From: an uncultured Erysipelotrichaceae bacterium
GTDB lineage: Bacteria; Bacillota_I; Bacilli_A; RF39; UBA660
Assembly (NCBI GenBank): GCA_902797265.1
Contig: CADBSF010000023.1
Location: 1-57,175, forward strand
Reading direction: 5' to 3'
DNA: 57,175 nt
Positions 35,371-53,386 of the stretch are shown in pieces (position 1 is the stretch's first letter; each line of letters opens with the position of its first letter). The notes beneath the pieces are model-generated. The model was not told the DNA's origin, did no database searches, and was given only the letters and a program-made list of their open reading frames with translations. The position numbers were made by a program, and so were the translations under genes.

Positions 35371-35400
35371 CCCATCCTTTCTATCATAAATTACAAAACA

Positions 35401-35429
35401 ATTATATCAAAATAAAACTACAATAACAA
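35401..35429 (-). promoter_or_regulatory. SigA-type promoter with extended -10 upstream of the pilin-like ORF
   Basis: Minus strand: TTGTTA-17 nt-TATAAT preceded by TGA (TGnTATAAT), in the 81-nt gap after the tadC-like gene. Confidence 0.5.
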
Positions 35430-35451
35430 CACATTTTACAACTATTTTTAA

Positions 35452-37157: not shown

Positions 37158-37172
37158 ATCATCTACTCCCTT

Positions 37173-38663
37173 CTACTCGCCTAACTTCATTGTAGCAGGA
37201 ATTCCAGTTGTATAATTTGCATTATTCATATCATTAGAAATATTTGGAGTTAAAGCTACTTGATTCGTAGGATATACAGGATTAGAAGGAAGATCTGGTA
37301 CAGGAGTAACAGGTTGATTATTTTCAACTGTACTACTAACTGCATTAACATCTGATACAGATGGAGTAAATCCATTTGTATTCTCTTCTCTTAGCATTTG
37401 ATTAACCATATTTGAAGTTGGATAAACACTCTCTTGAGAAGCAGTTTCTTCTGTTAAAACTTCACTTTGTACAGATTCAACTTGATTTGTATTATCTTCA
37501 CTAGTAACCACTTTATTAATAGTATTAGTCTCTTCTGTTGTTGTTATATTATCTTGACTAATCTCTTCGTAATTAGAATTATCTTTTCCACTACGAATTG
37601 GTAATTCATCAGGTAATCCACTAATAATATCAGAAACATTGATATTTTGATTTTCTATATATTCAATCAAATGATTACTTGGTTTACACATCATAGGTTT
37701 TCCAAACATTTTTTGATAAATAACACGAGAAATTGGAACATTATTATCATCAACATAAAATTCACATACTTCATCTAATTCACGATGGAATTTTCCATAT
37801 TCTTTTGAATAAAAAGCTTTAATATGAACTCCTAACTGGATATAACGATATATGGTAGTTAAGAATTGATGAACATCCAAATCTGTTTCCATTAAGGAAT
37901 ATAAACGATAAGGAATAGCAGATGCTTTATCCGCATGGATTGTTGATAAAATATTATGTCCAGAAGAAATCGAATTACGAACTGCAGAAACAGCTTCTGC
38001 AGAACGTACTTCTGATAGTAATATCCATTTAGGATTCTGTCTCATACAAGTTACTAATACGTCAGAATAACTAGCAACGTTATTTGTCTTCATTGAAACA
38101 ATATCTCTTTGTGGAAATATTTTATCCAAATGCAACTCTAGTGTATCTTCAATGGTTATGATTTTTTCATTAGTTTTGGTATGACTTGCTAAATACTTAA
38201 CAAACTCTGTTTTACCAGAACCAGTTTCTCCAGCAACCATTATGTTACAATGACCTTCAACGCATTTGATTAAAAAGTCATGAATGGTTGGTGTAAAATA
38301 ATCTTCTTGAATTAATTTATCTTTTTCAAGACGTATTTTAGCAGGAGTTTTACGAATAACTAGTGCAATTCCATTTGTTGCGATAGATTGATGAACAAAG
38401 TTCATACGTAACTCTGCAGATTCAGCATCCAAAAATGGTTTTGCATTATTAAATGTAGTACCCATAACATTAGAACACTGAAAAGCAAGTTTCTCAACGA
38501 ATTCAGGAGTAGCACCTTCTACTTCAACTCTTAAAGATCCTTGTGTAAGTGAACGAATCCAAATTTGTCCACCATTATCAAATGAAATATCTGTAATATC
38601 GTCGTTATCTAATAAAGAACGAAAAGGCCCAAAATCCAATTTATCAAAAATATTTTCGTTCAT
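37173..38663 (-). CDS. TadA/CpaF-type secretion ATPase (VirB11/T2SS-E superfamily) with low-complexity C-terminal tail
   Basis: Walker A MVAGETGSGKTEF, Walker B/Asp-box region WILLSEVRSAEA and His box STIHA. A ~140-aa S/T/N/V-rich tail (37173..~37601) lies beyond the ATPase core. Confidence 0.8.
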   Translation of the reverse strand: MNENIFDKLDFGPFRSLLDNDDITDISFDNGGQIWIRSLTQGSLRVEVEGATPEFVEKLAFQCSNVMGTTFNNAKPFLDAESAELRMNFVHQSIATNGIALVIRKTPAKIRLEKDKLIQEDYFTPTIHDFLIKCVEGHCNIMVAGETGSGKTEFVKYLASHTKTNEKIITIEDTLELHLDKIFPQRDIVSMKTNNVASYSDVLVTCMRQNPKWILLSEVRSAEAVSAVRNSISSGHNILSTIHADKASAIPYRLYSLMETDLDVHQFLTTIYRYIQLGVHIKAFYSKEYGKFHRELDEVCEFYVDDNNVPISRVIYQKMFGKPMMCKPSNHLIEYIENQNINVSDIISGLPDELPIRSGKDNSNYEEISQDNITTTEETNTINKVVTSEDNTNQVESVQSEVLTEETASQESVYPTSNMVNQMLREENTNGFTPSVSDVNAVSSTVENNQPVTPVPDLPSNPVYPTNQVALTPNISNDMNNANYTTGIPATMKLGE

Positions 38664-38701
38664 CTAGCTCACATCCCTTTTTATTCTTATTGTTCTTTTA
38701 A

Positions 38702-39508
38702 TTAACTTTCTGTCCAAACAGTATGTTGATTAATCCAATCTTTTAATTGTTCACTAGAAATCTCTTGATCAGCAGGTTCATCTTTTAAACTTTCATTAGT
38801 AGGAACTAATATTAAGTTTGTATCATAAGTTCTCATGAATTCTGCTTTTTTAAGAAGTACAAATGTTTCTTCAGGAACAGCAAACACTACCATAGCTGGA
38901 ACTCTTACTTCATCTAAGTTTTGGAATACAGGTTGTCCATTAGCATCTTTAACAGCTAATACTTCAATGTTAGAAATTAGTTTACCTAACATAATTTTGT
39001 CAGCATCAGCATCAAGTTTTTGATTATTATCAAGTTTATTAACTGCTTTTAAATAGATGTCAATATAGTTTCCTGGGTATACAGAGTTTCCATAAGTAGA
39101 AGCTGTACTAACGCTTAAGTTATATAGAACATATCCTTTTGGATAATCTAATATAATATTTGCTGGTAATTGTTCTTTTTCAACAACTGCTCTTTTATAG
39201 AATAAGCTTCCTTTTGGAATAACAGAATCAGCAGCAGAATATTTATCAACAATTTCCCCTATGTTTTGAATTACATCACCTTCAAGCATTGAAGGAGGTA
39301 CATTTCTTGTTGATATCATTGATTCTGTTATCTGAGTTCCTGGATTAATTTGTTCTGCAGCATAAGGTACAGAAACTGGATTAATTTGTGAGTTAATACG
39401 CATTGTGTAAGCAAAATATAATACTACAATTGCTGCGATAACCCCGACTACAGTAACTGTATTTTTATTTTGCATAAATTTTTTTAAACTAGTAGATAAA
39501 TTTCCCAT
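38702..39508 (-). CDS. CpaB/RcpC-like Flp pilus assembly protein (SAF domain)
   Basis: N-terminal TM helix, then a SAF-like block VSVPYAAEQINPGTQITESMISTRNVPPSMLEGDVI...ADSVIPKGSLF as in CpaB. 268 aa. Confidence 0.6.
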   Translation of the reverse strand: MGNLSTSLKKFMQNKNTVTVVGVIAAIVVLYFAYTMRINSQINPVSVPYAAEQINPGTQITESMISTRNVPPSMLEGDVIQNIGEIVDKYSAADSVIPKGSLFYKRAVVEKEQLPANIILDYPKGYVLYNLSVSTASTYGNSVYPGNYIDIYLKAVNKLDNNQKLDADADKIMLGKLISNIEVLAVKDANGQPVFQNLDEVRVPAMVVFAVPEETFVLLKKAEFMRTYDTNLILVPTNESLKDEPADQEISSEQLKDWINQHTVWTES

Positions 39509-39530: not shown

Positions 39531-40037
39531 TTAATTTTTATTTTGTAGCTCTATTAAAGACTTACATTGATCTAAAGTCATATTCTTTAAACCTTCCTCA
39601 ACTGGAAAATCACTATAAACATTAGATTCAACAATCATATCATAACTAGTTGAAATATTTCCTGAATCTTTAGATTCTTTTCCATCTTTATCCTTTACTT
39701 TTACAGAAAGAACAGTTTGAGAATCTACTTTAATACTTGCTTTTGGTGGAACTTCATTAATATCATAGAACTTAATATTATAATCTCTTGTTCCATCTAC
39801 ACTATTAGCAAATCGATAAACGAAGCTTTCAACAAATTTTTCTTTATCGATTCTAAGTAGACCACAGGTTCTTAAATATGTATTATCAATGGCATCAAGA
39901 GCAGCGGCATCCGCTGTCTCTTTTACCAAATAATAATCTAATTCTCCTCCAGTTGAATAATTAGTAAGTACATTAATCATTAGAAGAGCAATAACACTTA
40001 ACAAAATTATTCCTACTGCCAACATTCCTTTATTCAT
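39531..40037 (-). CDS. N-anchored ~170-aa protein with prepilin-like short leader (module copy B)
   Basis: Starts MNKG followed by MLAVGIILLSVIALLMINVL, then the conserved STGGELDYYLVKETADAAALDAID. By eye ~70-75% identical to 45773..46285. Confidence 0.55.
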   Translation of the reverse strand: MNKGMLAVGIILLSVIALLMINVLTNYSTGGELDYYLVKETADAAALDAIDNTYLRTCGLLRIDKEKFVESFVYRFANSVDGTRDYNIKFYDINEVPPKASIKVDSQTVLSVKVKDKDGKESKDSGNISTSYDMIVESNVYSDFPVEEGLKNMTLDQCKSLIELQNKN

Positions 40038-40055
40038 TGTTCATCACTCCTCCTC

Positions 40056-42794
40056 TTAATATTCTTCACATTGTGTAGCTCGATAGTTTCTAATGTTATT
40101 ACAATGTAATACACTAGGACTTGGTGCTGTTACATCTTTTAACTTATCTTTACCTCTTAATAATGGTGATTCATATACACCAATATTTTGAATTGTAAGT
40201 TCTCCATCAAATGTACCAAATTGTTTATTTTGTGTTCTTAGTTTTTTAATTTCTTCACGAGTAAGTGTTATCTCATAGTCTAGATATTCATTACTATAAA
40301 TACTATATCCTTTTTCCTCTACAAATGTTTTATAAGCAGATGGATTTGAAGTATATTCAGGGTCCTTCAATGTATTTGTAGCATAACTACTCCAGTTAAA
40401 TGGAACTGCTTCACTCTTAGAAGAGCCATCTTTACTTGGGAATAAATTCTCAAGACTTACAGAACGAACTTTATACTCTTTCTTTTTATCAGAATCATCA
40501 GAAATACTGATACATTTTTTATCACAATTTTCAACTTTATCAAGACCACCAAGAGCATAGAAACATGAAATATCAATATCCCATTCAAATAATCCGAATT
40601 TTCTTGTAGTTGCTTTGATGTTATATTTAACATTCTTTACATCTTCCTCAGTAAATGTTCCATAAGTAGTAGCATAATTACATGTATTAGTACAGTTCTT
40701 ACCATCTTCAATATAACTTGTAGTTTCTGAATTAGCAGCATAAGATGGATCATTTCCATGCATCTTAGCATAATAGTATAACCACCATTTTTCATTTACA
40801 TAAGGGAAATCATATGGTATACAGAATTTTTTATCTGTCTTAGTCCATGCTTTTCCAGTAATTTCTTTGAATGATATTTCACCAGTCTTAGCATTATGCC
40901 ATGTACCTGGGAAACTCCATTCAGATAAATACCATCTTTGATCAATACTTGTAGATGTAGTTCCTTCTGTTCCACTTGTAGTAGTTCCACTGAATGAAGA
41001 ACTTCCTACTGGGTTGTAGCAACCATCAGCATCTAATAATGTACTATCTTTTGTACTCTTAGTATTAACTCCTGAGTATGCCATTTCATCTTTACTTCTT
41101 GAGTAAGGGAAGTTAATCCATGTTTCTTCACTCTTACCTTTTTCTAAGTAAGATACTGAAATAGTAAATTCAGCAGTTGATGTATTACATTTAGCATAAG
41201 CTTCACATTGAGATTTTAATTTTAAGTAAGTTTTTGCATTTTCTTCTGCATCAACTTTATAGTCTTCTAAGTTAAGGTAAACATCACCTGTTCCACCTTT
41301 CCAAGAACATTTATCACTACATATATTTCTTATTGGAATACCATTTTCTATTTTTGTATAATCTTTTTTAGGAGGAATTCCCCATTTATGACCTTGATGC
41401 CATCTAGATAAGCCATCACCTGTCCAATAAATTTTACCTTTTTTACAAACATATTTTCCTTCACTATTAGGAACTTTAGTTGTATTCTTATTAGCAACTT
41501 TAGAAACCGTATAATCATCTGTACTATTTAATTTTTCAGCATAAGATAATTCTAAAGTAGATGTTTTAGTAGTTGTTTCACCATATACTTCTTGATAACA
41601 CTTATCACTACATTTATCAGAATACTTACCACCATCACATTCAGCAATACAACTATCGAAATCTTCACTTGGACCACCTTGTCTCATTGTTTCTGAACCA
41701 TGGTGTACACAAACTGGTGTAGGTGTTTCTAATATAGCGTCTTTTGGTTTTGGAACACCTGAATCACTAGAACAATTTACACGGCTAGTAACTTTAACTT
41801 TGTATTCAAAACATAAACCAGCTTTAGAAGCAACAGGAGCTCCATATTCTACTTCAACAACCTCTTCACATTTTATTTTACAAGAAACTGTTTCTGATTT
41901 AGCTTGACATCCATAATTATATACATATTTTCCTTCAATAGATGCAAGAGTTCCTTCACCATATAAATAATTTGTATTTACATAGTATTCACTATCATTT
42001 TCAGGAACACCAGTAACTAATTTATAAGGATCACATTTAAAAGAAGCAGTAGACACTCCTAATTTTGAAAATGTATTTCTTTCAGCAGTAAACGTATATG
42101 CTTTTTTACTACTTTCTGGTGCATTATTATATCTATTTTTCATATCACAGAACTTATATTCAAAAGATTCTGCAGCAAATTTTGATTGATAAGAATTACA
42201 ATCAATTCCAGGTGTACCAACACTGTCAGGTAAATTAGCAGCAGTAAGCACTTCTTGTGATGGTTTATAAAAATTACTTATAGAAATCCAAACCAACATG
42301 GAAGAACCTGCTCCACAATTTTTTGTTAATTGTGGATCCGTAAATAATGGTTGTAAAATTACCTTAATTGACTCATATTCTTCTGAAAAAGTATTAAAAA
42401 TTATTTCATTTTTCGAACTTAATGTTAAATTGGAATTACGTATTTTAGAAGCAAAATCAGGAATATCAACTTCAACTAAATCCACATCTCTAATGCCATG
42501 AACAGCCACTACTTTAAATTTTACTTCATCCTTTATTTTTCCATTCGTCTTAAAAGCATTAGCAATCATATTACTATTTAATTGCATTCTAATATAATCT
42601 GGGTTTAAATCCTTATTATAAGCAAAAGAAATACCATATCTTGATTGAAAGTCTGTAGTACTAAAACTAGTACATTTATCACTTCCATCACCGGCTACTT
42701 CTGCATTTCTATCATCTGCAAAAACATTGACATATGAAAAAGCTAAAAATAAAATTAAAACCCCTATTATTCTTTTATAATGAATCTTCTTCAT
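40056..42794 (-). CDS. large secreted cysteine-rich protein, unknown family (module copy B)
   Basis: AAGGGAG RBS lies 9 nt before the ATG at 42794. Signal peptide MKKIHYKRIIGVLILFLAFSYVNVFA; ~29 Cys by manual count; no C-terminal sorting signal. Paralog of 46303..49200. Confidence 0.65.
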   Translation of the reverse strand: MKKIHYKRIIGVLILFLAFSYVNVFADDRNAEVAGDGSDKCTSFSTTDFQSRYGISFAYNKDLNPDYIRMQLNSNMIANAFKTNGKIKDEVKFKVVAVHGIRDVDLVEVDIPDFASKIRNSNLTLSSKNEIIFNTFSEEYESIKVILQPLFTDPQLTKNCGAGSSMLVWISISNFYKPSQEVLTAANLPDSVGTPGIDCNSYQSKFAAESFEYKFCDMKNRYNNAPESSKKAYTFTAERNTFSKLGVSTASFKCDPYKLVTGVPENDSEYYVNTNYLYGEGTLASIEGKYVYNYGCQAKSETVSCKIKCEEVVEVEYGAPVASKAGLCFEYKVKVTSRVNCSSDSGVPKPKDAILETPTPVCVHHGSETMRQGGPSEDFDSCIAECDGGKYSDKCSDKCYQEVYGETTTKTSTLELSYAEKLNSTDDYTVSKVANKNTTKVPNSEGKYVCKKGKIYWTGDGLSRWHQGHKWGIPPKKDYTKIENGIPIRNICSDKCSWKGGTGDVYLNLEDYKVDAEENAKTYLKLKSQCEAYAKCNTSTAEFTISVSYLEKGKSEETWINFPYSRSKDEMAYSGVNTKSTKDSTLLDADGCYNPVGSSSFSGTTTSGTEGTTSTSIDQRWYLSEWSFPGTWHNAKTGEISFKEITGKAWTKTDKKFCIPYDFPYVNEKWWLYYYAKMHGNDPSYAANSETTSYIEDGKNCTNTCNYATTYGTFTEEDVKNVKYNIKATTRKFGLFEWDIDISCFYALGGLDKVENCDKKCISISDDSDKKKEYKVRSVSLENLFPSKDGSSKSEAVPFNWSSYATNTLKDPEYTSNPSAYKTFVEEKGYSIYSNEYLDYEITLTREEIKKLRTQNKQFGTFDGELTIQNIGVYESPLLRGKDKLKDVTAPSPSVLHCNNIRNYRATQCEEY

Positions 42795-43614
42795 TATTGT
42801 CATCTCCCTTCAATTTTTTTTCAATTTTTGAATATTTTTTTGTAGTAGTAACTTTATAATCTGTTATTTCTTCATTATCTCTTAATAATCTACCATTTAC
42901 AATAACTTGATAATAAGGACTAGTTCCAAAAAATCTAGTACATGTATAAATAGATATTAAAGAATCTTTTTCATTAACGTCGACATCATATTGATATAGA
43001 CTTTCCTTTCGAAGCAAACTAATTTGCTCTTTCATTTCTTCTTCATCATAATCATCGCCAGCTGGAAAAGAGGTAACATCAGCATTTTTTATAAAATCAA
43101 CTGCAAAGATTTTATACACATAATCTTTTCCATCAATTGTAAATTGAATATATTTGTTTTCCTTTGCAAAATCATAATAAACATAAGCCATTAATTCTTC
43201 CAATCTTTTAAATTTTTCAGAATGAATCTTAGGAGTAGAAGATAAATTGAAAATATTATGACCCATTAAATTTATCATATTATGAAAATTAGGATCAAAA
43301 TTTTCTGACCAAACATAGCTTTCTAATTCTACTGGAAAATCAAAAGAACGATTAGTACTATAAAGAACAGGATAATCAATATTAGTGCCTTCCATTCTCA
43401 GCCATCCTATTACTCTATAAGATGAATCACTGGTAATAACAGTTTCTTCAATATTTTTCGTTCGTGATTCAACAGTAAACAATTCTTTGGTTTTCTTCGA
43501 CTGCTTATTAATACTTCCAAGCGAAGAAACAATTCCAATTATCATAATGAATAAAAGAAATACACCTATTAGAGAATAAAAATATTTACTTTTTTTATTC
43601 TTTCTTTTCATCAT
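42775..43614 (-). CDS. class B sortase-like cysteine transpeptidase (module copy B)
   Basis: N-terminal TM helix plus blocks that align with S. aureus SrtB: VIGWLRMEGTNIDYPVLY, MGHNI (His) and LISIYTCT (TLxTC-type Cys). An Arg lies in NGRLL. AAGGAG RBS precedes the ATG at 43614. Confidence 0.65.
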   Translation of the reverse strand: MMKRKNKKSKYFYSLIGVFLLFIMIIGIVSSLGSINKQSKKTKELFTVESRTKNIEETVITSDSSYRVIGWLRMEGTNIDYPVLYSTNRSFDFPVELESYVWSENFDPNFHNMINLMGHNIFNLSSTPKIHSEKFKRLEELMAYVYYDFAKENKYIQFTIDGKDYVYKIFAVDFIKNADVTSFPAGDDYDEEEMKEQISLLRKESLYQYDVDVNEKDSLISIYTCTRFFGTSPYYQVIVNGRLLRDNEEITDYKVTTTKKYSKIEKKLKGDDNNEEDSL

Positions 43615-43637
43615 CAAAACTCCTTTATAATCATGTT

Positions 43638-45425
43638 CTATTTAATTTTATAGGGTTCTTGAATTGTTCCTTTGCCAGAAACAATAGTTGCATTTTCTTT
43701 GATATAGCCAACAACACGAATTCCTAATTCAAATCCACTTCCAATCTTTTCATTGATAGGAACTCCGATGTTATACACAGCTGCTATTCTCTTACTATTC
43801 TTACTAGAATTTAGATACCAATAAGAACCGTTTTGTTTAGATTGTGCAGAAAATAAATCATACATATTTGGAGCAGATAATATAGCATTATACTCTTTTG
43901 TCTCAACTTCCTTTCCGTATAAAAATCTATCTTTATAAATCGGTACTTGAATTTTATGATTGACAAAATAGTGTGTATCAATAGACTCGCTTACTTTATT
44001 ATTAATAAAATAACCAACATTATTTTTTTCTTTAACATTATAAATGTAATTACTTCTATTCGTATCAACAATATAAGTTATTTCTTCAGAAGAATTTGTA
44101 ACAACATCTGTATTGATAACTTTTGTTGTTCCATCTTTTAATGATTCAATAATTCTAAATAAATCTCCTCCAATATCTATGTATTCACCAGAATACCTAT
44201 CATGAACATAATCACCTGGTTTTGCTTTCTTATTATCAGATAATACATAAGGATTGTCTTCTGAACCATCACCATCAATAATTAATGAATTTTTCATCAA
44301 AGTTAACATTGGTCTTACTCCATAAGTTTCATCTACGCTATAAGGTATATAAGAATAATTTGCATATTCATTAACAAATGCATCTCTTGTTACATAAGCA
44401 TTCTTAGAATCTTTTTTATCAGCTACCCAAGACATCGTTCTAGTTTTCATAAAATTGCTATCTGTAGAAGCTGCTTCATTTACTTCAACAACAGAAGGAA
44501 TATAAACTTTTCGTTTCTTTGTGTAAGAACTACAATCTGTAGTACCTACAGCATTTTCATCTAAAGTCATATCACAATACTTGCTATCGACAACTAATTT
44601 CTTACTCTCATCTGTTAAGTGATCATAGAAATATTTTAGCCAAGAATCTAATCCTGAATAATTCACATTACTAATATCTTCATCCGCAACTATTTTGATA
44701 TTATCATTTTCATCAATTCCATAGATACGGAAAAGCATATTTGAAAAAGTAACATAATTATTATAAGGATTACCTGAATAATTTTTTTCAGTAGATAAAT
44801 CTTTCTTTACAGTACTATACAAATCTTGAACAACATTAACCGTTCTAGTAGAAACTCCTTTGTTACTCAAACCATCAAACGCTGAATAAGTAAGAGTGTA
44901 AGTTCCTGTCACTTGAGTATTTACTTCTCCTTTAACAGTAACATCGGATTTATCCATTTTGCCATCTTTGTTGTCAACAACACTGTTAACTCCTGGATCC
45001 ATAAATGATTCTCCTAAGCTAAGAGTAATTTCCTTTTCTCCATTCAATTTGATTACAGGTCCTGTATGATCAACCATTGATTTTAATAATCCACATTCTA
45101 AATAAACATAATATTTGTATTCTCCATTTACTCTTTTTACTTTAACCCAACTATTATCAAGTGAGCATGTAGTTTTAGTATAAGGAATTAACACATCTTC
45201 CTCAATAAAAGATTTGTGATATAAAGTCTTCAAAGTAACTGCCTTAACTCTCTCACCAGTAGGCAATTCACTAGTATATAGTTCAAAATATCTTTCTGCT
45301 GCTTTTCTTAGTTTATTTTCATTTTCTCTAAAAATAATAGTAGGCCATATGATTAAAAACCAAATAAATACAACGACAAGAAATATTGTTACTAATAACT
45401 TCCAACTATTCTTTTTATTCTTCAT
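43638..45425 (-). CDS. N-anchored surface protein: Ig-like (DUF5011-type) domain + two 'GVRP / GxG(T/S)xExPY' modules (module copy B)
   Basis: TM helix LLVTIFLVVVFIWFLIIW. Ig-like block GPVIKLNGEKEITLSLGESFMDPGVNSVVDNKDGKMD...VTGTYTLTYSAFDGLSN...RTVNVV. Module motifs YGVRPMLTL...GDGSEDNPYVL and GIRVVGYI...GKGTIQEPYKIK. Confidence 0.6.
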   Translation of the reverse strand: MKNKKNSWKLLVTIFLVVVFIWFLIIWPTIIFRENENKLRKAAERYFELYTSELPTGERVKAVTLKTLYHKSFIEEDVLIPYTKTTCSLDNSWVKVKRVNGEYKYYVYLECGLLKSMVDHTGPVIKLNGEKEITLSLGESFMDPGVNSVVDNKDGKMDKSDVTVKGEVNTQVTGTYTLTYSAFDGLSNKGVSTRTVNVVQDLYSTVKKDLSTEKNYSGNPYNNYVTFSNMLFRIYGIDENDNIKIVADEDISNVNYSGLDSWLKYFYDHLTDESKKLVVDSKYCDMTLDENAVGTTDCSSYTKKRKVYIPSVVEVNEAASTDSNFMKTRTMSWVADKKDSKNAYVTRDAFVNEYANYSYIPYSVDETYGVRPMLTLMKNSLIIDGDGSEDNPYVLSDNKKAKPGDYVHDRYSGEYIDIGGDLFRIIESLKDGTTKVINTDVVTNSSEEITYIVDTNRSNYIYNVKEKNNVGYFINNKVSESIDTHYFVNHKIQVPIYKDRFLYGKEVETKEYNAILSAPNMYDLFSAQSKQNGSYWYLNSSKNSKRIAAVYNIGVPINEKIGSGFELGIRVVGYIKENATIVSGKGTIQEPYKIK

Positions 45426-45467
45426 ATTTTTCTCCCTTATAAAAACACTAAAACTATTCTATTACTT

Positions 45468-45495
45468 ATTGTATCATATTCATGATAAATGTCAA
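45468..45495 (-). promoter_or_regulatory. near-consensus SigA promoter for module copy B and downstream genes
   Basis: Minus strand: TTGACA-16 nt-TACAAT, with TGA giving an extended -10. It lies ~42 nt upstream of the ATG at 45425, which has an AAGGGAG RBS. Confidence 0.55.
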
Positions 45496-45657
45496 CACAT
45501 CGAACCCAATAACTTTGCTTTTTGACACGTAATAGATGAAAAAAGTATCTTTATAATGAGAAATCGGTAAATAGTCAAAAAATTATATTATTTTAATGAA
45601 AAACCTATTCTAAAAAAGTAAAACATAATGAATATCTTTCTTAGAAAACTATTGCAT

Positions 45658-45677
45658 ACCGAATCCCCTCTTTCGGT
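45658..45677 (-). other. small hairpin with SD-like loop in the inter-module spacer
   Basis: Minus strand ACCGAA-AGAGGGGA-TTCGGT followed directly by ATG CAA TAG. It lies just downstream of a TGATATAAT extended -10 element (45683..45691). Confidence 0.35.
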
Positions 45678-45682
45678 GACTT

Positions 45683-45691
45683 ATTATATCA
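45683..45691 (-). promoter_or_regulatory. extended -10 element (TGATATAAT) without a good -35
   Basis: Read on the minus strand in the 347-nt spacer. The best -35 candidate is TTGTTT at 18 nt. Confidence 0.3.
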
Positions 45692-45772
45692 TTATTCTTG
45701 CAAAAAAACAAGATTTTTTTACAAGAACAAAATGAATGAAAAAAAATGCCTTAAAAAGACACTTTTTTCAAA

Positions 45773-46285
45773 TCAATTTCTAAGTTCTTGTAGAGCTTTA
45801 CATCTATCAGATGTTTGATTATGTAAACCCTCTTCTACTGGAAAATCATTATATACAGTAGTTTCTACTACTAAATCATAATTAGTACTGATTTTAGCAG
45901 ATTGATTATCTCCATAATCATTATTACCGTTTCCTTTTCCTCCAGAATTAACAGCAAGTACCGTATTTGAGTCTACTTTAATACTAACTCTTGGAGGAAC
46001 TTCATTAATATCATAAAAACTAATATCATAATCTCTTGTAGCATCTACACTATTCGCAAAACGATAAACAAAACTCTCTATAAATTTTTCTTTATCCATT
46101 CGAAGTAATCCACAATCTCTTAGATAAGCTTGATCAATAGCTTCTAAAGCAGCGGCATCTGCTGTTTCTTTTACTAAATAATAATCTAGTTCTCCACCTG
46201 TTGAGAAATTGGTAAGAACATTAAGCATTAGAAGAGCAACAATACCCAACAAAATGATTCCTACCGTTAACATTGCTTTATTCAT
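45773..46285 (-). CDS. N-anchored ~170-aa protein with prepilin-like short leader (module copy A)
   Basis: Starts MNKA followed by MLTVGIILLGIVALLMLNVL, then STGGELDYYLVKETADAAALEAID. GGAGGAG RBS. Paralog of 39531..40037. Confidence 0.55.
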   Translation of the reverse strand: MNKAMLTVGIILLGIVALLMLNVLTNFSTGGELDYYLVKETADAAALEAIDQAYLRDCGLLRMDKEKFIESFVYRFANSVDATRDYDISFYDINEVPPRVSIKVDSNTVLAVNSGGKGNGNNDYGDNQSAKISTNYDLVVETTVYNDFPVEEGLHNQTSDRCKALQELRN

Positions 46286-46302
46286 ATATTATTACTCCTC
46301 CT

Positions 46303-49200
46303 TTAAAATTTCTCACATTCACCGCTACTACGGTTTTTAATATTATTACATTTTAATGCTGCAGAACTTGGATAAATTGATCCGTTATTAGCTAAAATAC
46401 CACCTGTTGCAAATAAGGAACTTCGATAAATATTAACATGATCATTATCTATGATGTTACCATTATATTGACCAATAGAATTACCACTATTTCGAATTTG
46501 ACGAATTGTATTTCGATCAAGTTTGATTTTATAATCCAAGTATTTGTCAGAATAAATATTATAATTGTTCTCCTCTACCCATTTTCTATAAGCAACAGCA
46601 TTTGATATATAACTACTATCCTTCGTACTAGTAGAAAAACTACTCCAGTTAAATGGTACAGGGCTATGAATCTCGTCTGATTTACTAGTTCCTTCCTTAT
46701 CAGGGAACATATTATTTAAGTCTACAGAACGAACTTTATATGTTGGAATATCAGGAATTGTACATTTTTCTTCCTCTATTGAACAAGATGGTAATTTACT
46801 ATAAAGAGAATAGAAACAAGAGATATCTACATTCCAACCAAAATGTCCAAAGTTTCTACTAGTAGCTTTAATATTGTATTTAAGTTCACTTACATCCGTA
46901 GAAGAGAATTCTTCAACTTTATAATTATTACATTTATCACAACTAGAACTATTAACTTTATTGGTAGAATTAGCTGCATAGTTAGAATCATTACCATATA
47001 ACTTCGTATAGTAATATAACCACCATTTTTGATTTACATCCTGAGCATCTCTTGGAACATAGAATTTATGTTTTCTAAATCCCCATGCCTTTCCCGTACT
47101 ATTTGGATTACTATAAGCAAGTTCACCAGTTTTTCCATTTATCCAAGTACCAGGGAATCCCCATTCAGCATGGTACCAATTCGTATCATTATCTACGTTG
47201 TAGCAACCAGCACAACTAATAATAGAGGTATCTTTCCAATTATCAGCTGTAGTAGTACTTCCATTTGCTGGATTATCACATTTTTGTGGATTTTTAAATT
47301 TCAAAACATCAGAAGTTCTAGTATATGGGAAATTAACTGTAAATTCTTGATTAGATTTAGAAGCTAGATAATTAGTGCTAATATTAAAGTAAGCTTCTTC
47401 TGTTTTACAAGTATTAGAATTTCCACATAATCCAAGTGCTCTAACATACGTTTCGTAATTAGCTTTCATATCATTTGCGGTGTCAATAGGATTTATATAA
47501 ATTTTAGAGTCATCCATTGTTTCTCCAGTACATCCATCCCAATGACAGGCAACAGTACAGTCACACTCTGAAGCAATACCAGCCGCTTTTCCAGTATTCT
47601 TAACACATTTTAACTCAGAACGAACATTTCCTTTCATTACATAATATCTTCCAAGTCCAGGACAATACTGGTTTCCAAAATTCCAAACAACATAAACACC
47701 ACTGGCATCTGTATAACGACTATAAGATCCAACCCCATCTGTACTTGCAGGACACCATTTTGTAATTCTACATTTGGTTCCCGCTTTAGAAGTAACTTTA
47801 TTATCACAAGATTCTTTATTATTCTTAACTTTTTCTAAATAATCATCATAAAAACTATTGGCAAGTGATTTAGAAATTTCACTCTTTGTTCCATATACTT
47901 CATTATAACAAGATAAAGAACACTTTTGAGTATACTTTCCACCATCACAATTTTTGATACATTGATCAAATTCTTCATTAGGACCTGCAGTCTCAATCTC
48001 AGCACCCTTAGAATGAACACAAATTGGCGCAGGAGTACAAACTGTTTTATACCTTACTTCAATCTCAGGCTCTTTAATTGGACTAGTAGAATAACAATTA
48101 ACTCTACTGGTCATTTTAACTTTATACTCGAAGCCAAATCCAGCTTTAATTCCAACTGGAGGACCATATTCAACAGTAACAGTCTCAACACATGTTTTAT
48201 TGCATTGTAAGGTAACTGTCTCAGCAGCCGGCCCACCATTATTATGATAATGAAAAGTATAAACTAAAGGTACCCCATTATCATAAATTGGTCCCGTTGT
48301 AGATGATGTCCCTACCATATAACTTTTATTAACATAATAATCAGAAACATCATCTGGTTTTGAAAAATTATAAGGATCACATTTAAATGTCTTTAAATCC
48401 ATCGTTTGTCCTTCAGTTAAATTATACCTATTTTCTGCTGGAGTAGCATTATAAGCATTACAAAATTCATATTCAAAAGAACCAGGTGTATGAGATACTC
48501 CACAATTTATTTGACTAGATTGATTCTTTTTCTTAATTTCTTCTGCTTGTGCTTTTAGAGAATTAATTGCTCCTTTAATTCCTTCCGTTTCAGTATCCCA
48601 TGTAGTAGTCCAAAAATTTCCATCATCTACAAGAGGTTCAAAAGATTCTGCACCAAGAAATACACGTTCATTTGGATTACTTGCACTTCTTAATACAATA
48701 TTATAAGTCGCAATGTCATAACCTCTATTAAACATTATAAATACTTCATCATTTTCAATAGGATCATTATTACTCTTTTTCCTAACTCTATCAGCTGCTA
48801 ACATTTTAATCCAATGTTCTTTTGAAGCATCATTACTAGCCTGAATAATACATCTATCCTGATAATAATTATTATTTTGTGTCCTACAAAGCCAACGATT
48901 GACATCTATTCCTTCGAATTCATAAGCTAGTTTTGCTGAAGTATCCGTTGATTTAGAAACAACTACAACTAATCTTTCAACCACTACCCTTTTCTTAGTA
49001 GTAATTTTAATCCCCATATTTCTTGGAATTGGTTCAGCTTTCGCTTCTAAAGCAGGGACTATGGTATTTTTTAATTCCTCAACATACCCAGGATCAACCC
49101 GTCTCGTATAAGCATTTACAGAAAAAGGAATCATTAGAAAGAAAAGAAAAATTACTATAACCCCTATCTTTTTTAAATTAAATGTTTTCATCATTTTCAT
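46303..49200 (-). CDS. large secreted cysteine-rich protein, unknown family (module copy A)
   Basis: Signal peptide ...IGVIVIFLFFLMIPFSVNA (start may be the ATG at 49194). Shares blocks with 40056..42794: FKCDPY, VEYG.PV..KAG..FEYKVK.TSRVNC, CDGGKY..KCS..CY.EVYG, FPGTW.N.KTGE, KWWLYYY, YNIKAT.R.FG.F.W..DISCFY, YKVRSV.L.N.FP.K.G.SKS, PFNWSS. Confidence 0.65.
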   Translation of the reverse strand: MKMMKTFNLKKIGVIVIFLFFLMIPFSVNAYTRRVDPGYVEELKNTIVPALEAKAEPIPRNMGIKITTKKRVVVERLVVVVSKSTDTSAKLAYEFEGIDVNRWLCRTQNNNYYQDRCIIQASNDASKEHWIKMLAADRVRKKSNNDPIENDEVFIMFNRGYDIATYNIVLRSASNPNERVFLGAESFEPLVDDGNFWTTTWDTETEGIKGAINSLKAQAEEIKKKNQSSQINCGVSHTPGSFEYEFCNAYNATPAENRYNLTEGQTMDLKTFKCDPYNFSKPDDVSDYYVNKSYMVGTSSTTGPIYDNGVPLVYTFHYHNNGGPAAETVTLQCNKTCVETVTVEYGPPVGIKAGFGFEYKVKMTSRVNCYSTSPIKEPEIEVRYKTVCTPAPICVHSKGAEIETAGPNEEFDQCIKNCDGGKYTQKCSLSCYNEVYGTKSEISKSLANSFYDDYLEKVKNNKESCDNKVTSKAGTKCRITKWCPASTDGVGSYSRYTDASGVYVVWNFGNQYCPGLGRYYVMKGNVRSELKCVKNTGKAAGIASECDCTVACHWDGCTGETMDDSKIYINPIDTANDMKANYETYVRALGLCGNSNTCKTEEAYFNISTNYLASKSNQEFTVNFPYTRTSDVLKFKNPQKCDNPANGSTTTADNWKDTSIISCAGCYNVDNDTNWYHAEWGFPGTWINGKTGELAYSNPNSTGKAWGFRKHKFYVPRDAQDVNQKWWLYYYTKLYGNDSNYAANSTNKVNSSSCDKCNNYKVEEFSSTDVSELKYNIKATSRNFGHFGWNVDISCFYSLYSKLPSCSIEEEKCTIPDIPTYKVRSVDLNNMFPDKEGTSKSDEIHSPVPFNWSSFSTSTKDSSYISNAVAYRKWVEENNYNIYSDKYLDYKIKLDRNTIRQIRNSGNSIGQYNGNIIDNDHVNIYRSSLFATGGILANNGSIYPSSAALKCNNIKNRSSGECEKF

Positions 49201-49999
49201 TATCTCCTTTCAAAATAGATAATATTTTATCATAATTACTATTCATAGATACACTATAGCGACTATTTTTTTCCCCTTTTCTAAGTAACCTACCTGTAAC
49301 ATAGAAACTATAATTATCCTCTGCTCCAAAGAAACGTGTACAGGTAAATAAGGTTACATACTTATCCTTTTCATTATAGGAAGTTCTATAATCAAATATA
49401 GAATTCTTCTTCCAAAAGATTATATTCTTTTTTATCTCTTTTTTTGATAGATTACCTTTTCCAACAAAATCATGATATTGATCTTTTTCCATAAAACCAA
49501 CAGATATAATTTTATATAGGTAATCATGATCATTAAATGTTATTTGAATGTATTCATTCTCTTTAGCAAAATCATAATACACAAAACTCATCAACTCTTC
49601 AAATCGATAAAACAGGACAGATCTTAATAATGGTTCACTAGATAAATTAAATATATTATGTCCAGAAATATTAAACTGATTATAGAGTTTAGCTTTCTCA
49701 TGCAAAATCCACACATAATTTTCTTCTGTTGCTGGATAACCATAGTTAGTAATATCTTTTGAAAAAACAATGGGAATATCAAGACTAGTTCCTTGAACTC
49801 TAAGCCAACCAACAGTATCTAAGGAAAGAGTTGAATCAACTTTAACAGAATGAACCTTCTCCACTCTACTAAGAACTTCATAATAATCTTTCCTTTTACT
49901 AAAAAATGGGCTTACAGCAAACAAGAATATTAAAATACAAACTATAACAATATAGAAAAACTTCAAGTCAATTCTTTTTAATAACAACCTAAACCACAC
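49178..49999 (-). CDS. class B sortase-like cysteine transpeptidase (module copy A)
   Basis: TM helix, then TVGWLRVQGTSLDIPIVF, SGHNI, VTLFTCT and TGRLL. The start codon is uncertain (GTG at 49999 or TTG at 49987). Confidence 0.6.
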   Translation of the reverse strand: MWFRLLLKRIDLKFFYIVIVCILIFLFAVSPFFSKRKDYYEVLSRVEKVHSVKVDSTLSLDTVGWLRVQGTSLDIPIVFSKDITNYGYPATEENYVWILHEKAKLYNQFNISGHNIFNLSSEPLLRSVLFYRFEELMSFVYYDFAKENEYIQITFNDHDYLYKIISVGFMEKDQYHDFVGKGNLSKKEIKKNIIFWKKNSIFDYRTSYNEKDKYVTLFTCTRFFGAEDNYSFYVTGRLLRKGEKNSRYSVSMNSNYDKILSILKGDNENDENI

Positions 50000-50001
50000 C
50001 T

Positions 50002-51825
50002 TTATTTACTTAATTTATATGGTTTTTCCAGTGTCCCCTTTCCACTAGAAATAATCACATTATTTTTTAAATAACCAACTACTCTAATACCAGCATCAAT
50101 ATAAGTTGGAACTTCACCATTATATACTACACCAATATCAGTAATATATCCAGTAATTTTTTTAGTTTTTGAAGAATTTAGTAACCAATAAGACCCTCCA
50201 TTATATTTTCTTTGTGGTTGGGCACTAAACAATTCATACATTTCAGGAGCTGATAATAAAACTTTATATTTCTTTTTTTCAACCTCTTCACCATATATAA
50301 TTTTATTTTTATAAATTGGCACTTCAATTTCATGATTTACAAATAAAGAGGTATCAATATAATCAGCTGATTTATTATTAATAAAATGAGCAACACTATT
50401 TTTATCTTTAGGATTATATTCCATTTTTTCACTACCATCATTAACAGTAGTTGTAAATGGACTTCTAGGATTACCAATAGTTGTAACCGATACAACTTTT
50501 GTAGTACCATCACTTAATAAATCTACAATTCTATAAATAGTTCCTTTAATCACTACATACTCACCAATAAATCGATCATGAATTAAAGAAGAATTACTTG
50601 CTTTAGGAGTATCACCTAAATCATATGGATTTTCTACTGTTCCATCTCCACTACTAATTAACAAATCTCCCTTAATCGCAAACATTGGTCTTACTCCATA
50701 ATTATCTGTTTTAGAATAAGGAACATAAATTAATCCATCATACTCTCCCCAATTAACATCACGAACAGCATAAGCATTTTCATCATTTTGGGATGTCGCT
50801 GTCCAAGAAATAGTAGGAGTTTCCATAAAACAAACATCAATAGTTCCTTCTTCTTCATCAACATCTTCTGCCTTATTAATATCAACAACAGAAGGAATAG
50901 TAATTTTCTTCTTACTAGAATAACTACTACAATCTACTAATTCAAAGTAAGGATTTTCTAAAGATGACATATTACAATATTTTTTCTCTACAATATTCTT
51001 TTTAGTAAAATCATTTAACTTACTATAATAATATTCTAACCATTTATCTACTTTAGTATAATTTACATTAGCAATATCTTCATCAGACACTAAAATAATA
51101 TTTTTATCATTATCATATCCATATATTCTAAATAACATATTAGATAATTTAATAAAATTGTTTTGAGGATTTCCCTGATAATTAGTCTTATCTCCTAAAT
51201 CTTTCTTAATGGTATGATATAACTCATGTACAACAGTAACTTTCCTAGTAACTGTATTTTTATTACTCATTTTATCAAATGCTGTATAAGTAATTTGATA
51301 AGTACCTAATTTATTTACATCAACATTTCCTTTAATTACAACATCTTTTATATCTAATTTTCCATCAACACTATCTTTTACACTTTTAACACCAAGTTCT
51401 TTATATTCTTCACCAACATTAATAGTAATCTCATCATCACCATTTAATTTGATAGTAGGTCCAGTATGATCAATATTAGATTTTAAAAGACCACATTCTA
51501 AGTATACATAATACTTATAATCATTATCAACTCTTTTTACCTTTACCCAACTATTTTCTGTAGAACAAGTAGTATTTGTATAAGGTATCTTAATATCTTT
51601 ATCAATAAAAGATTTATGATATAACTCTTTTAAAGTAACAGTCTTTACTCTTTCTCCAGTAGGTAGTTCATTATGAAATACTTCAAAATATCTTTTAGCA
51701 GCTTTTTCTAATCTTTTTTCTCCATTAGAAAATTGAAGCATAGGACTAACTACAATAAAATAGACAATTCCCATTACGATTACAAGGAATATAATTAATT
51801 TTATCTTTTTACTCAATTTCTTCAT
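50002..51825 (-). CDS. N-anchored surface protein: Ig-like (DUF5011-type) domain + two 'GVRP / GxG(T/S)xExPY' modules (module copy A)
   Basis: GAGGAG RBS lies 8 nt before the ATG at 51825. Ig-like block GPTIKLNGDDEITINVGEEYKELGVKSVKDSVDGKLD...LGTYQITYTAFDKMSN...RKVTVV. Module motifs YGVRPMFAI...GDGTVENPYDL and GIRVVGYL...GKGTLEKPYKLSK. Confidence 0.6.
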   Translation of the reverse strand: MKKLSKKIKLIIFLVIVMGIVYFIVVSPMLQFSNGEKRLEKAAKRYFEVFHNELPTGERVKTVTLKELYHKSFIDKDIKIPYTNTTCSTENSWVKVKRVDNDYKYYVYLECGLLKSNIDHTGPTIKLNGDDEITINVGEEYKELGVKSVKDSVDGKLDIKDVVIKGNVDVNKLGTYQITYTAFDKMSNKNTVTRKVTVVHELYHTIKKDLGDKTNYQGNPQNNFIKLSNMLFRIYGYDNDKNIILVSDEDIANVNYTKVDKWLEYYYSKLNDFTKKNIVEKKYCNMSSLENPYFELVDCSSYSSKKKITIPSVVDINKAEDVDEEEGTIDVCFMETPTISWTATSQNDENAYAVRDVNWGEYDGLIYVPYSKTDNYGVRPMFAIKGDLLISSGDGTVENPYDLGDTPKASNSSLIHDRFIGEYVVIKGTIYRIVDLLSDGTTKVVSVTTIGNPRSPFTTTVNDGSEKMEYNPKDKNSVAHFINNKSADYIDTSLFVNHEIEVPIYKNKIIYGEEVEKKKYKVLLSAPEMYELFSAQPQRKYNGGSYWLLNSSKTKKITGYITDIGVVYNGEVPTYIDAGIRVVGYLKNNVIISSGKGTLEKPYKLSK

Positions 51826-53386
51826 CAGTTCCACTCCTCATTATTTGATAAACATATTTTTTCGTACGTAATATATATTCAATATTTATTTCTTGGGCAC
51901 TTTCCATCTCATCTGGTACAAGAGTATAAATATATTTTCCTAAAGCAGTTTTAACAAAAGGATATTTAAACTCTACTTCTTCTTCATTACCTTGACTATC
52001 TATATATTTAATTTTAGCATACTCTTTTGAAATATTAAACATCTTCTTACCTTCTAATTCATCAGAAGAGAAAGGTATTGTTAAAATTCGATAACCATCT
52101 GGAGCAACATAACTAATTTTTTCTACATAACAATTTGTTGTATTACAAGTACGATAACTATATAGAACACCAGTTGAAATATCATATTCTTCAAAAGCTA
52201 CATGTTCTTCCAAATCTTTTATCTGGAAAACCATTTCCTCTCCTTCTTTTATCGTTCCCATATCTTCTATCTTACTGATATCTTTCACTTTTAATTTGAA
52301 TTTTCTTAAATATCCATTATTCTCTTGAAAATAGAAATCAAAGCTATTCTTAGATAAAGAGGCACTTACTTTATAAATAATTATAAAGTTTAAAGTCTCA
52401 TCTCTTTTTATCTCTTTCACATCTTCTAAAGTGTTTCCTAAATCTTGAAAATCTTTTGCATAAGTGTTTCTTGTAGTCGTATAATCATGACTACCACTTT
52501 TTATATGAAACTTCTCCATCTTTAATGTTCTAGGTGCAGCATGATTGGTAATCGAAATATTTGCTATTACAAACTTACTTTTTGGTGTTACAACTTCTCC
52601 TGCATAATTCTTATCTGTCCAATAAACATCATTTACTTTCATTGTATATCCTTCAAAAGAATAATTTTGTCCTTGACGATATACCTTATTCGTTACAAAG
52701 AAAAATATAAAAGAACGATAAGCAATAATAACAATTAAAAGAATTGCAACTGCTCTGCAGATTAGAGTATGCTCCTCATAAAAATATTTAAAATTACGGA
52801 TTGATCTTTTCCAAAAACGACGAAGACTATTTTTATCAAAATCAACACTTACTTCAATTTCTTCTCGATCTTCTTCACTTAATTCAAGAAATTCCTTATC
52901 TGTATTAAAATTGAATTTCTTAATATCAAGTCCAAAGACACGCATTACAAATACCCCAATAGCAGGAAGTTGTAAAATAGAAAATATTAATAATAAATCC
53001 TTTGACATACGTAAATCTGTTGTTTCCATATCAAAAGATAATCCATATTTACGGAAGAAACCACGTATCATATTAAGTATAAATAATACAGCTAAATATT
53101 CTGCTAAAGGAATTAAATATACTTTCCAAGGCTTCTTTTTATATAGTAAAAGAATAATAATCGCAACTGTACCAACTAGAATTAAAAAGATAGAAATCAT
53201 TAATAACGAAGTAATATGATGACTAATTGGATCTTTATAAGAATAATTAGAAGTTCTCATAAAAGCATTTACAAATCTACTAATATCTATTAACATATAT
53301 CCAACATATAAACTAAGTACTAGTAGGAAGATATGTATTTTCTTAAAATTCTTAATCAAAAAAGCATATGGTTTTCTAATTATCAT
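51809..53386 (-). CDS. polytopic membrane protein with extracytoplasmic beta-rich C-terminal domain (first gene of the locus)
   Basis: AAGGAG RBS and ~5 TM helices. The C-terminal domain has a DUF4352-like block (KSKFVIANISITNHAAPRTLKMEKFHIKSG); this domain call is tentative. Confidence 0.5.
   Translation of the reverse strand: MIIRKPYAFLIKNFKKIHIFLLVLSLYVGYMLIDISRFVNAFMRTSNYSYKDPISHHITSLLMISIFLILVGTVAIIILLLYKKKPWKVYLIPLAEYLAVLFILNMIRGFFRKYGLSFDMETTDLRMSKDLLLIFSILQLPAIGVFVMRVFGLDIKKFNFNTDKEFLELSEEDREEIEVSVDFDKNSLRRFWKRSIRNFKYFYEEHTLICRAVAILLIVIIAYRSFIFFFVTNKVYRQGQNYSFEGYTMKVNDVYWTDKNYAGEVVTPKSKFVIANISITNHAAPRTLKMEKFHIKSGSHDYTTTRNTYAKDFQDLGNTLEDVKEIKRDETLNFIIIYKVSASLSKNSFDFYFQENNGYLRKFKLKVKDISKIEDMGTIKEGEEMVFQIKDLEEHVAFEEYDISTGVLYSYRTCNTTNCYVEKISYVAPDGYRILTIPFSSDELEGKKMFNISKEYAKIKYIDSQGNEEEVEFKYPFVKTALGKYIYTLVPDEMESAQEINIEYILRTKKYVYQIMRSGTDEEIE

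Follow-up and report, generated by a model that had tools for sequence, protein, structure and literature searches.

Paralogous specificity modules of a filament or secretion machine are an already-known principle, as in the Kil Tad pilus Tips of Myxococcus xanthus (KilL/M/N, Tip1-4; PMC12075869). Here, we study a tandem pair of four-gene cassettes in the genome of an uncultured Erysipelotrichaceae bacterium (GTDB lineage RF39). Each cassette encodes an Ig-domain surface protein (A), a sortase-like protein (B), a giant Cys-rich protein (C) and a small DUF5411 protein (D). The window, i.e., the whole stretch of DNA that was analysed, comprises the 57,175 nt of contig CADBSF010000023.1; its G+C content is ~28% and nearly all of its genes are located on the minus strand. 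By analogy with the described systems, what would be new is this cassette and its locus. That is, the gene duplication itself is ordinary, while a variable cassette on an undescribed chromosomal hybrid of a Tad-like machine and a type IV secretion system (T4SS) in monoderm gut bacteria is unusual.

The Kil Tips are alike in that several paralogous multi-gene clusters, partly located outside the main locus, serve one Tad-type machine. They also combine a conserved helical base with variable disulfide-rich distal parts, including a large subunit with a distal domain that lacks homologs in the PDB, and a second secretion apparatus cooperates with the machine (a type III secretion system, T3SS*, in Kil; putatively the T4SS-like block here). 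Unlike the cassettes, they are built from three pilins of the TadE/F/G type, which carry prepilin cleavage sites, and their host is a diderm. Here, the host is monoderm, only D is pilin-like and lacks TadE homology, C carries a Sec signal, the unit also includes a sortase-like enzyme as well as a lectin/Ig protein, and the system is known from its genes alone. A second point of reference is given by the PilV variants of the IncI thin type IV pilus (R64; TP114, PMC9045228), where a type-IV-filament pilus is likewise encoded together with a T4SS and alternative adhesin variants set the partner specificity for transfer. PilV variation relies on a shufflon (site-specific recombinase plus inverted repeats) acting on a single plasmid gene, whereas we find whole paralogous four-gene chromosomal cassettes and neither a recombinase nor convincing inverted repeats.

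Individual parts of the locus have further counterparts. DUF5411 was earlier seen solely within a predicted CpaF-PilC operon of Clostridia (Roseburia/Ruminococcus/Eubacterium; PMC9523054), which combines it with a Tad-type ATPase, a platform protein and an internalin-like, i.e., adhesin-like, protein in Gram-positive gut bacteria and is, like the locus studied here, uncharacterised. We liken the two through DUF5411 alone. That operon comprises eight to nine genes, and neither a T4SS block nor a sortase, a giant Cys-rich protein or a cassette duplication has been reported for it. The chromosomal T4SS of Southlakia epibionticum (Patescibacteria; PMC12857230) is also a non-mobile monoderm set (VirB1/3/4/6/8/D4-like) with adjoining divergent pilin-like genes in a reduced-genome, uncultured-type lineage. 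It belongs to another phylum, its pilins are VirB2-like rather than part of a Tad-type block, no sortase/giant-protein cassette is described for it, and its essentiality was shown, while the locus here is known at the gene level. According to a recent review, Gram-positive T4SSs encode no pili and rely on wall-anchored adhesins (PMC12857230), and class B sortases are known to travel with giant secreted proteins on gut megaplasmids (PMC12934698). Searching the literature on RF39/RFN20 with pili or T4SS, and on CpaF with VirB4 and sortase, we found no description of the locus.

An earlier note on this DNA had proposed the tandem duplication from the letters alone, and ORF (open reading frame) calling reproduces its eight coordinate pairs, with alternative starts a few codons upstream (A1 GTG 51834; B2 TTG 43617; C2 ATG 42803) as the sole difference. 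All eight ORFs are uninterrupted and located on the minus strand: cassette 1 comprises A1 (50002..51825), B1 (49178..49999), C1 (46303..49200) and D1 (45773..46285); cassette 2 comprises A2 (43638..45425), B2 (42775..43614), C2 (40056..42794) and D2 (39531..40037). Each paralog pair aligns significantly in BLASTP, i.e., A1/A2 with 52% identity over 604 aa (E = 0.0; global identity 53.0%), B1/B2 with 39% over 259 aa (E = 4e-67; global 39.7%), C1/C2 with 36% over 771 aa, i.e., the C-terminal ~725-770 residues (E = 2e-133; global 39.1%) and D1/D2 with 71% over 171 aa (E = 1e-81; global 73.9%). The earlier observation is confirmed, with paralog identities of 71-74% for D, 52-53% for A, 39-40% for B and 36-39% for C. 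Similarity confined to transmembrane (TM) or low-complexity segments had been named as a finding that would speak against a true duplication; instead, paralog similarity runs through whole folded regions. The domain labels also hold in Pfam (Ig-like in A, Sortase in B, DUF5411 in D).

We lend somewhat better than even weight to the reading that the two units are ancient paralogous accessory cassettes of an apparatus, serving as interchangeable surface/tip specificity modules. The apparatus itself appears from its gene content to be a chromosomal, vertically inherited combination of a Tad-like filament machine and a monoderm-type T4SS, and all four cassette products are predicted to be exported or membrane-anchored with their bulk outside the cell. 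The cassettes are gained, duplicated and dispersed as a unit and evolve much faster than the machine. In mechanistic terms, D would be a conserved adaptor whose pilin-like N-terminal helix docks the cassette onto the machine or filament. C, giant and disulfide-rich with a swappable N-terminal head, and A, with its Ig and C-type-lectin-like domains, would form the exposed ligand-binding parts. B would act as a sortase-like cysteine transpeptidase or protease that co-varies with A and C and processes or cross-links one of them. Two cassettes would then yield two surface/tip complexes differing in specificity for a host glycan or partner cell. The suggestion of alternative tip/adhesin complexes or host-range variants, made in the earlier note, is consistent with the data but unproven; it fits in view of the locus context and topology, the presence of lectin/Ig domains, the rapid divergence and the exchange of the C head.

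Both copies are old. Nucleotide identity between them is 54-77% in aligned codons, the longest repeat blocks (direct, gene-length) reach 72-81%, and no identical nucleotide tracts are present, so there are no recently converted tracts. The synonymous divergence dS is ~0.9-1.2 (Nei-Gojobori method, NG86), i.e., close to saturation. Respective ratios of nonsynonymous to synonymous divergence (dN/dS) are 0.19 for D, 0.45 for A, 0.51 for B and 0.64 for C, which given this saturation (proportion of synonymous differences pS 0.52-0.60) are uninformative for diversifying selection, and none is demonstrated. These values say that the copies are old and that D is the most constrained, and little more.

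We also compared the copies with those of related species. Copy 2 is nearer than copy 1 to the single-copy orthologs of the nearest species (B2 > B1, C2 > C1, D2 > D1). A search with C1 returned two full-length relatives at 40-41% identity, one of which is carried by a sister species from the rumen (L085/L086) in the same layout as in the window, i.e., U525-ABCD-ABCD-CpaB, where U525 is the membrane-protein gene upstream of the cassettes. Between the window and L085, A is 64% identical for copy 1 and 68% for copy 2 (cross pairs 54-56%), B 52% and 62% (cross pairs 43-46%), C 46% and 57% (cross pairs 39-40%) and D 81% and 82% (cross pairs 73-75%), compared to 96% for the machine protein TM300 and 92% for CpaB. 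This copy-to-copy orthology in all four genes implies that the common ancestor already possessed two distinct cassettes and that both have been kept intact in its two descendants. Together with the dS values and the lack of identical tracts, the claim of an old, retained duplication stands.

Decay of one copy had been considered as a counter-finding, and metagenome-assembled genomes (MAGs) can indeed collapse or duplicate repeats; in addition, C2 is split into two ORFs in one related scaffold. That apparent frameshift turned out to be a run of N in the scaffold and was rejected. Six contigs from several samples, at least 99.9% identical, show no decay, and the 54-77% nucleotide identity of the copies makes a duplication by the assembler impossible. 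With both copies intact in independent assemblies, several samples and the sister species, the idea that one copy is redundant or decaying, or an assembly artefact, is refuted and can practically be dismissed. The second cassette may have arisen either through duplication in place or because an allelic cassette was inserted.

To survey copy number, as the earlier note had proposed, related genomes were scanned with one genome per species, which gave 171 confirmed stretches, from which 78 loci were kept. All of them stem from MAGs of uncultured gut/rumen Bacilli, labelled Erysipelotrichaceae, Bacilli, Mollicutes, Tenericutes, Mycoplasma sp. CAG:877 or Ca. Faecimonas. Across the 78 loci, the order greA-U525-A-B-C-D-CpaB-ATPase-TM300-TM267-...-VirB6 hardly varies; it is found again beside greA in about 70 MAGs, and the position next to greA is fixed in ~55 loci. 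This near-invariant gene order argues for a vertically inherited chromosomal system. One cassette is the usual state, and a second is found in at least 11 of 72 MAGs with variable boundaries: tandem ABCD|ABCD in the window and L065, tandem ...BCD|U525-ABCD in L003, L011, L067 and L073, and B-C-D alone adjoining greA in L053, L070 and L073. Further cassettes are unlinked to the locus, flanked by RecD2, M24 peptidase and TetR-like genes (L005, L008, L088), by pyruvate kinase (L033) or by Mur ligase and Ddl genes (L021, L050). The module had been suggested to be a functional unit, which holds in so far as whole modules are found at unlinked sites; its size is not always four genes, since some genomes carry B-C-D and others U525-A-B-C-D.

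Two side observations concern these extra copies. In L005, L008 and L088, a divergent gene of ~176-179 aa precedes the unlinked cassette, and its weak TetR_N match in L088 suggests separate regulation of the extra cassette. L035, L058 and L041 carry extra CpaB paralogs within the cassette region (U525-CpaB-A-B-C-D-CpaB...), with an additional 1268-aa C-family gene between the CpaB copies in L035.

The rates of divergence within the locus differ strongly. Median between-species identities of the machine are 79% for TM300, 75% for the ATPase and 66% for CpaB, compared to 62% for D, 48% for A, 38.5% for B and 32% for C (45.5% for U525). For the closest GTDB species, TM300 is 91% identical, yet its C is just 40% identical to C2. 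Distances of A, B and C inter-correlate beyond those of the core (partial r ~0.76-0.81), which is to be read as descriptive only because the species pairs are not phylogenetically independent.

C is the largest and most divergent cassette protein. Both copies carry a Sec-type signal peptide and are presumably secreted; C1 (965 aa) contains 35 Cys and C2 (912 aa) 29, with a family median of 31, and 22 Cys columns are common to the two. C ends in ...CNNIRNYRATQCEEY without a C-terminal anchor and matches no Pfam family. Exhaustive profile searching collected 665 family representatives (50% identity level), of which 464 reach E<=1e-30, i.e., the family is compact yet extremely diverse. No match was found for the C profile among PDB sequences, nor for C and D among sequenced plasmids (tblastn). 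The AlphaFold2 (AF2) model of C2, built from a 113-sequence alignment, is reasonably confident (predicted local distance difference test, pLDDT, 74.6; predicted template modelling score, pTM, 0.65), and Foldseek found no match to it at E<0.001 in PDB and BFVD. Within this model, a conserved NxKTG of C lies in a folded beta region (pLDDT 85-90) and was therefore set aside as a sortase site.

The core of C (aa ~300-400 and 620-900) holds many invariant Cys, aromatic and Gly residues. C2 has four CX3C pairs (residues 305-309, 382-386, 395-399 and 492-496) formed by residues that do not vary within the C family. Two of these pairs map to a predicted helical hairpin (H377-387 / H393-404) that recalls twin-CX3C disulfide hairpins. 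The heads are a different matter: BLASTP gives no alignment between the first ~240 aa of C1 and the first ~209 aa of C2, i.e., the heads of C1 (aa ~30-240) and C2 (aa ~27-209) are unrelated. The C2 head is the common type and shows weak similarity in many orthologs. For the C1 head, only one marginal match of 78 residues was found among 204 family members, to P0091, which is one of the two full-length relatives of C1. In some C-family members, a Listeria-Bacteroides repeat takes the head position (Pfam scan of nine selected members).

The invariant core could also suggest that the cassette proteins are structural, envelope-spanning parts, e.g., a peptidoglycan conduit or anchoring collar taking the place of secretin/RcpA-TadD as known from diderm Tad systems, with the copies as subfunctionalised isoforms. 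The cassette is found in essentially every locus directly upstream of CpaB (22-nt spacing), a sortase could serve to attach such a part to the wall, and the Mur ligase and Ddl genes in the MAGs show that a wall exists. We nevertheless consider this rather unlikely: no proteins of the locus evolve faster than C and B (32% and 38.5% vs. 66-79% for the core), the head of C is swapped outright, extra cassettes are located far from machine genes, and no wall-sorting signal is encoded.

Alternatively, C may be a secreted or displayed effector or toxin in two variants, with A, B and D as helpers for export, processing and immunity. C is large, secreted, highly polymorphic and without known fold, and the locus links it to a T4SS with coupling protein and no relaxase in view. 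Paralogous cassettes are, moreover, typical of polymorphic toxin loci. Such toxins usually vary at their C terminus, though, while C varies N-terminally, and neither a toxin or peptidase motif nor a respective Pfam domain was found in C. D as the only immunity-sized protein is the most conserved of the cassette, i.e., the opposite of an immunity partner, and the Sec signal of C makes delivery by the T4SS unnecessary. Overall, an effector role of C seems quite improbable to us. Neither PHROGs nor PADLOC gave a match for U525, A, B, C or D.

In terms of specificity modules, D would be the constant part of the cassette. D1 (170 aa) and D2 (168 aa) match DUF5411 (PF17424) with 135.9 bits (1e-39) and 140.6 bits (4e-41), respectively, at a cutoff of 30. 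A four-residue leader MNK[G/A/S] is found in 71/73 sequences and followed by ~20 hydrophobic residues; in D1, this N-terminal signal-anchor starts MNKA, then ML.... In the AF2 model of D2 (pLDDT 68), a helix (3-49) is followed by a three-stranded beta-sheet with long strands, so the predicted topology of D is pilin-like. No TadE Pfam match was found for D. Just outside the N-terminal anchor, an N[YF]STG motif (residues 26-30) is invariant in D; its cleavage would conflict with D acting as a pilin.

The sequence conservation of D has an additional component in other genomes. In L065, L067 and L073, the paired D genes are ~100% identical in nucleotides within the genome, whereas identity in the neighbouring C genes is 50-92% (100-nt windows) and changes abruptly at the C/D junction. 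One identical D protein is encoded both in a canonical locus and in an unlinked cassette (L088 versus L089). These findings suggest gene conversion or D-anchored recombination. The pattern fits D as the constant, machine-facing part, either homogenised by conversion or serving as a recombination arm, and by contrast fits A, B and C as the free-running part of the cassette. The lineage of the window is exceptional in that D1 and D2 are diverged and not homogenised. Among the species-representative loci, they are mutual best matches (72% vs. at most 71%); in the larger database, D2 has closer relatives (77-83%) than those of D1.

A is anchored by its N-terminus (hydropathy) and carries a Bact_surface_Ig-like domain (Pfam; 1.6e-18 and 3.2e-17). 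In A1, two lectin-like repeats accompany the Ig-like domain, while A2 additionally matches DUF6273, reported to be a C-type-lectin-like domain of phage receptor-binding proteins (PMC10743442). Profile search against PDB sequences recovers the Ig-like domain only, and BLASTP places GxG[ST]xxxPY at the end of an internal repeat of A.

B is membrane-anchored N-terminally and scores against the Pfam Sortase family (PF04203) with 36.1 bits for B2 and 21.6 bits for B1 (cutoff 26.6). The best PDB matches, i.e., the closest solved relatives, are SrtB enzymes such as those of S. aureus and C. difficile (1ng5, 6kyc; E ~1e-8 by profile search). B shares with these the similarity of the catalytic domain, the His, Cys and Arg motifs and the N-terminal anchor: GHN and TC[TS] are found in 80/82 family members, G[RK] at most 30 aa after the Cys in 52/82, and both B1 and B2 have GHNIFN, TCTRFFG and GRLLR. 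It differs from SrtB in scoring far below the cutoff of the TIGR03064 equivalog (34.4 vs. 153.75 bits), in the lack of a nearby encoded substrate of NPXTN- or SPXTG-type with C-terminal anchor, and in evolving as fast as the variable proteins it travels with. The previous suggestion of a dedicated processing enzyme is to be amended in that the locus encodes no canonical sorting-signal substrate for it. As an observation of its own, 69/76 A proteins carry LPTG just outside the N-terminal anchor (residues ~54-58). LPTG of A and N[YF]STG of D might be non-canonical sites of B or purely structural.

A sortase next to surface proteins also brings to mind a canonical sortase-dependent (LPXTG) pilus or adhesin operon that happens to adjoin a secretion locus. 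The gene order superficially resembles spa/rrg pilus islands, and pairs of sortase and adhesin linked to a T4SS are known from pCP13 (pcpD sortase plus cnaB; PMC8941779). But none of A, C and D ends in a sorting motif followed by a hydrophobic helix and a charged tail, the anchors of A and D are N-terminal, B is class-B-like instead of class C, and the position of the cassette within the locus is fixed across ~70 species. We therefore regard such an operon as highly improbable.

The two cassettes are separated by a spacer of 347 nt (45426-45772). Its near-consensus promoter, pointed out before, is recovered as TTGACA-16-TGaTACAAT at 45468..45495 (minus strand), 42 nt upstream of A2, with 11/12 consensus matches plus an extended -10 element. 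Promoter-like matches are overall not enriched (91 vs. 96.5 expected in shuffled sequence). The site is nonetheless conserved: in nine other loci the same motif, aTTGACwTTT-N11-aTGaTAAAAT, is located at 31-73 nt upstream of the respective cassette, and in each of these an intergenic gap directly precedes the first gene of the cassette (A or B). Directly 3' of the D1 stop codon, a terminator-like A-run/hairpin/U-run is found (45739..45769, minus strand; dG -12.8 kcal/mol, z -4.1), with an equivalent hairpin in the sister locus L085. Based on this terminator-like hairpin and the conserved promoter, two transcription units are likely, namely U525-A1-B1-C1-D1 and A2-B2-C2-D2-CpaB-.... That is, copy 2 has its own conserved promoter-like site and runs directly into the machine genes.

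Beside these signals, the spacer harbours a 20-nt inverted repeat (45537-45556 / 45751-45770; 90% complementary) that encloses ~194 nt. The spacer of the sister species is only 162 nt long and lacks the bracketed stretch, which may hence be an insertion remnant. No further copy of the inverted repeat was found in the window or the loci, and the spacer contains no remnant of U525 and no repeated element. An Rfam scan of the spacer gave a far sub-threshold miRNA match alone, which we take as chance.

The cassettes form the first part of a locus of ~33 kb (20536-53386) that appears to join a Tad-like filament block to a monoderm-type T4SS block. They are flanked by greA and U525 upstream and by a CpaB-ATPase-platform-Flp-like block downstream. 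U525 (51809..53386, minus strand) encodes a 525-aa polytopic membrane protein with an extracellular C-terminal part (from ORF, hydropathy and synteny) and a weak DUF4352 match; it lies ahead of cassette 1, shares an overlap with the start of A1 and, in some other genomes, has been duplicated along with the cassette.

Directly downstream of cassette 2 and putatively co-transcribed with it, the filament-type block (34259..39508, minus strand) starts with a CpaB/RcpC-like gene (38702-39508; RcpC 29.1 bits, cutoff 28.8; TIGR03177 CpaB 6.4e-12, below cutoff). It is followed by a TadA/VirB11-family ATPase (37173-38663; T2SSE 9.7e-28), which scores alike on the VirB11 and TadA NCBIfam models (both below cutoff). 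Two polytopic proteins, TM300 (36255-37157; 300 aa) and TM267 (35452-36255; 267 aa), take the expected platform position. Between the latter and the pseudopilin-like genes, a 51-aa ORF (35215-35370) is Flp-like by eye and without Pfam match. It reads MLMKAATG followed by ELNLTVITLIAIGAIIGFF, with the part after MLMKAATG also given as ELNLTVITLIAIG... and ELNLTVITLIAIGAIIGFFWIMW...; genes are called at its position in L079 (49 aa) and L089 (66 aa). The block ends with the Cys-rich pseudopilin-like paralogs s155 (34734-35201; 155 aa) and s151 (34259-34714; 151 aa), which have six Cys each, N-termini with ...GG followed by hydrophobic residues and a mutual hhalign E of 2.9e-62. They are probably the pseudopilins of the machine and unrelated to D.

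The T4SS-like block (20536..34226, minus strand) encodes p349, a VirB2-like protein, p194, VirB6/TrbL, a VirB3-like protein, TraC-like plus VirB4, a SpoIID-domain hydrolase, p279, VirD4 and a DUF6273 protein. Respective matches are TraG P-loop/AAA_10, T4SS-DNA_transf (1.4e-54), TrbL_4, the SpoIID domain and TraC-like, i.e., the monoderm T4SS core set of VirB4, VirD4, VirB6 and a cell-wall hydrolase is present (Pfam). No relaxase or integrase was matched by Pfam among the window ORFs and no tRNA is located in the window. Signs of a shufflon or diversity-generating retroelement are also missing, i.e., no recombinase or reverse transcriptase domain within the locus and only weak AT-rich inverted repeats in 39300-53600. 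The last gene of the locus (20536-21783, minus strand) encodes a 415-aa anchored DUF6273 protein whose C-terminus SGKGTEEEPYTIK mirrors the SGKGTxxxPYKxK of A; it may add a third lectin-like surface protein, linked to the end of the locus with the T4SS genes.

Several results weigh against the reading of the cassettes as surface/tip specificity modules. The confidence of the D2 model is moderate at its pLDDT of 68, and Foldseek found no match of D2 in PDB at E<0.001, pilins included. By hhalign, D shows no relationship to s151/s155, which counts against the reading, and likewise none to the A N-terminus, the VirB2-like protein or CpaB. C itself cannot be a pilin given its Sec-type, not prepilin-type, signal. 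No C-terminal sorting signal (hydrophobic segment after xPxT[GNAS]) was found in any protein of 20536-53386. All dN/dS values are below 1 at near-saturated dS, and the correlation of the A, B and C distances is also subject to the non-independence stated above. On the side of the machine, the two proteins in platform position show no Pfam match at E<=5, including T2SSF, and no PDB profile match, and a prepilin peptidase (A24) was not found among the window ORFs scanned. With platform proteins and prepilin peptidase unconfirmed, the term 'Tad-like' rests on the ATPase, CpaB, the gene order and the small pilin-like ORFs. Finally, the placement of the cassette proteins on a filament or tip, and their binding, is deduced from sequence, context and models.

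Going one step further, the locus could be a hybrid of two Gram-positive pilus logics. Here, B would join or process C and/or A to D at the membrane-proximal TG motifs, and the exchangeable head would be loaded onto a Tad-like filament that works with the chromosomal T4SS. Uncultured gut Bacilli would thereby possess a machine that transfers DNA, proteins or nutrients upon contact, with the cassettes setting the partner cells or host ligands. As a whole, we deem this proposal unlikely and put it forward as speculation.

What stands out is that a filament-type machine, a T4SS and a multi-copy variable surface cassette are found together in a single conserved chromosomal operon throughout this clade of uncultured Bacilli. 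If the cassettes are specificity modules, they would provide the proteins to test for attachment to, or exchange with, hosts or neighbours. In this case, three uncharacterised families would be added to the pilus/secretion toolkit, namely C, DUF5411 and a fast-evolving SrtB-like enzyme. The two copies, distinct since before speciation, would furthermore offer a natural contrast between constant (machine-facing) and variable (ligand-facing) residues.

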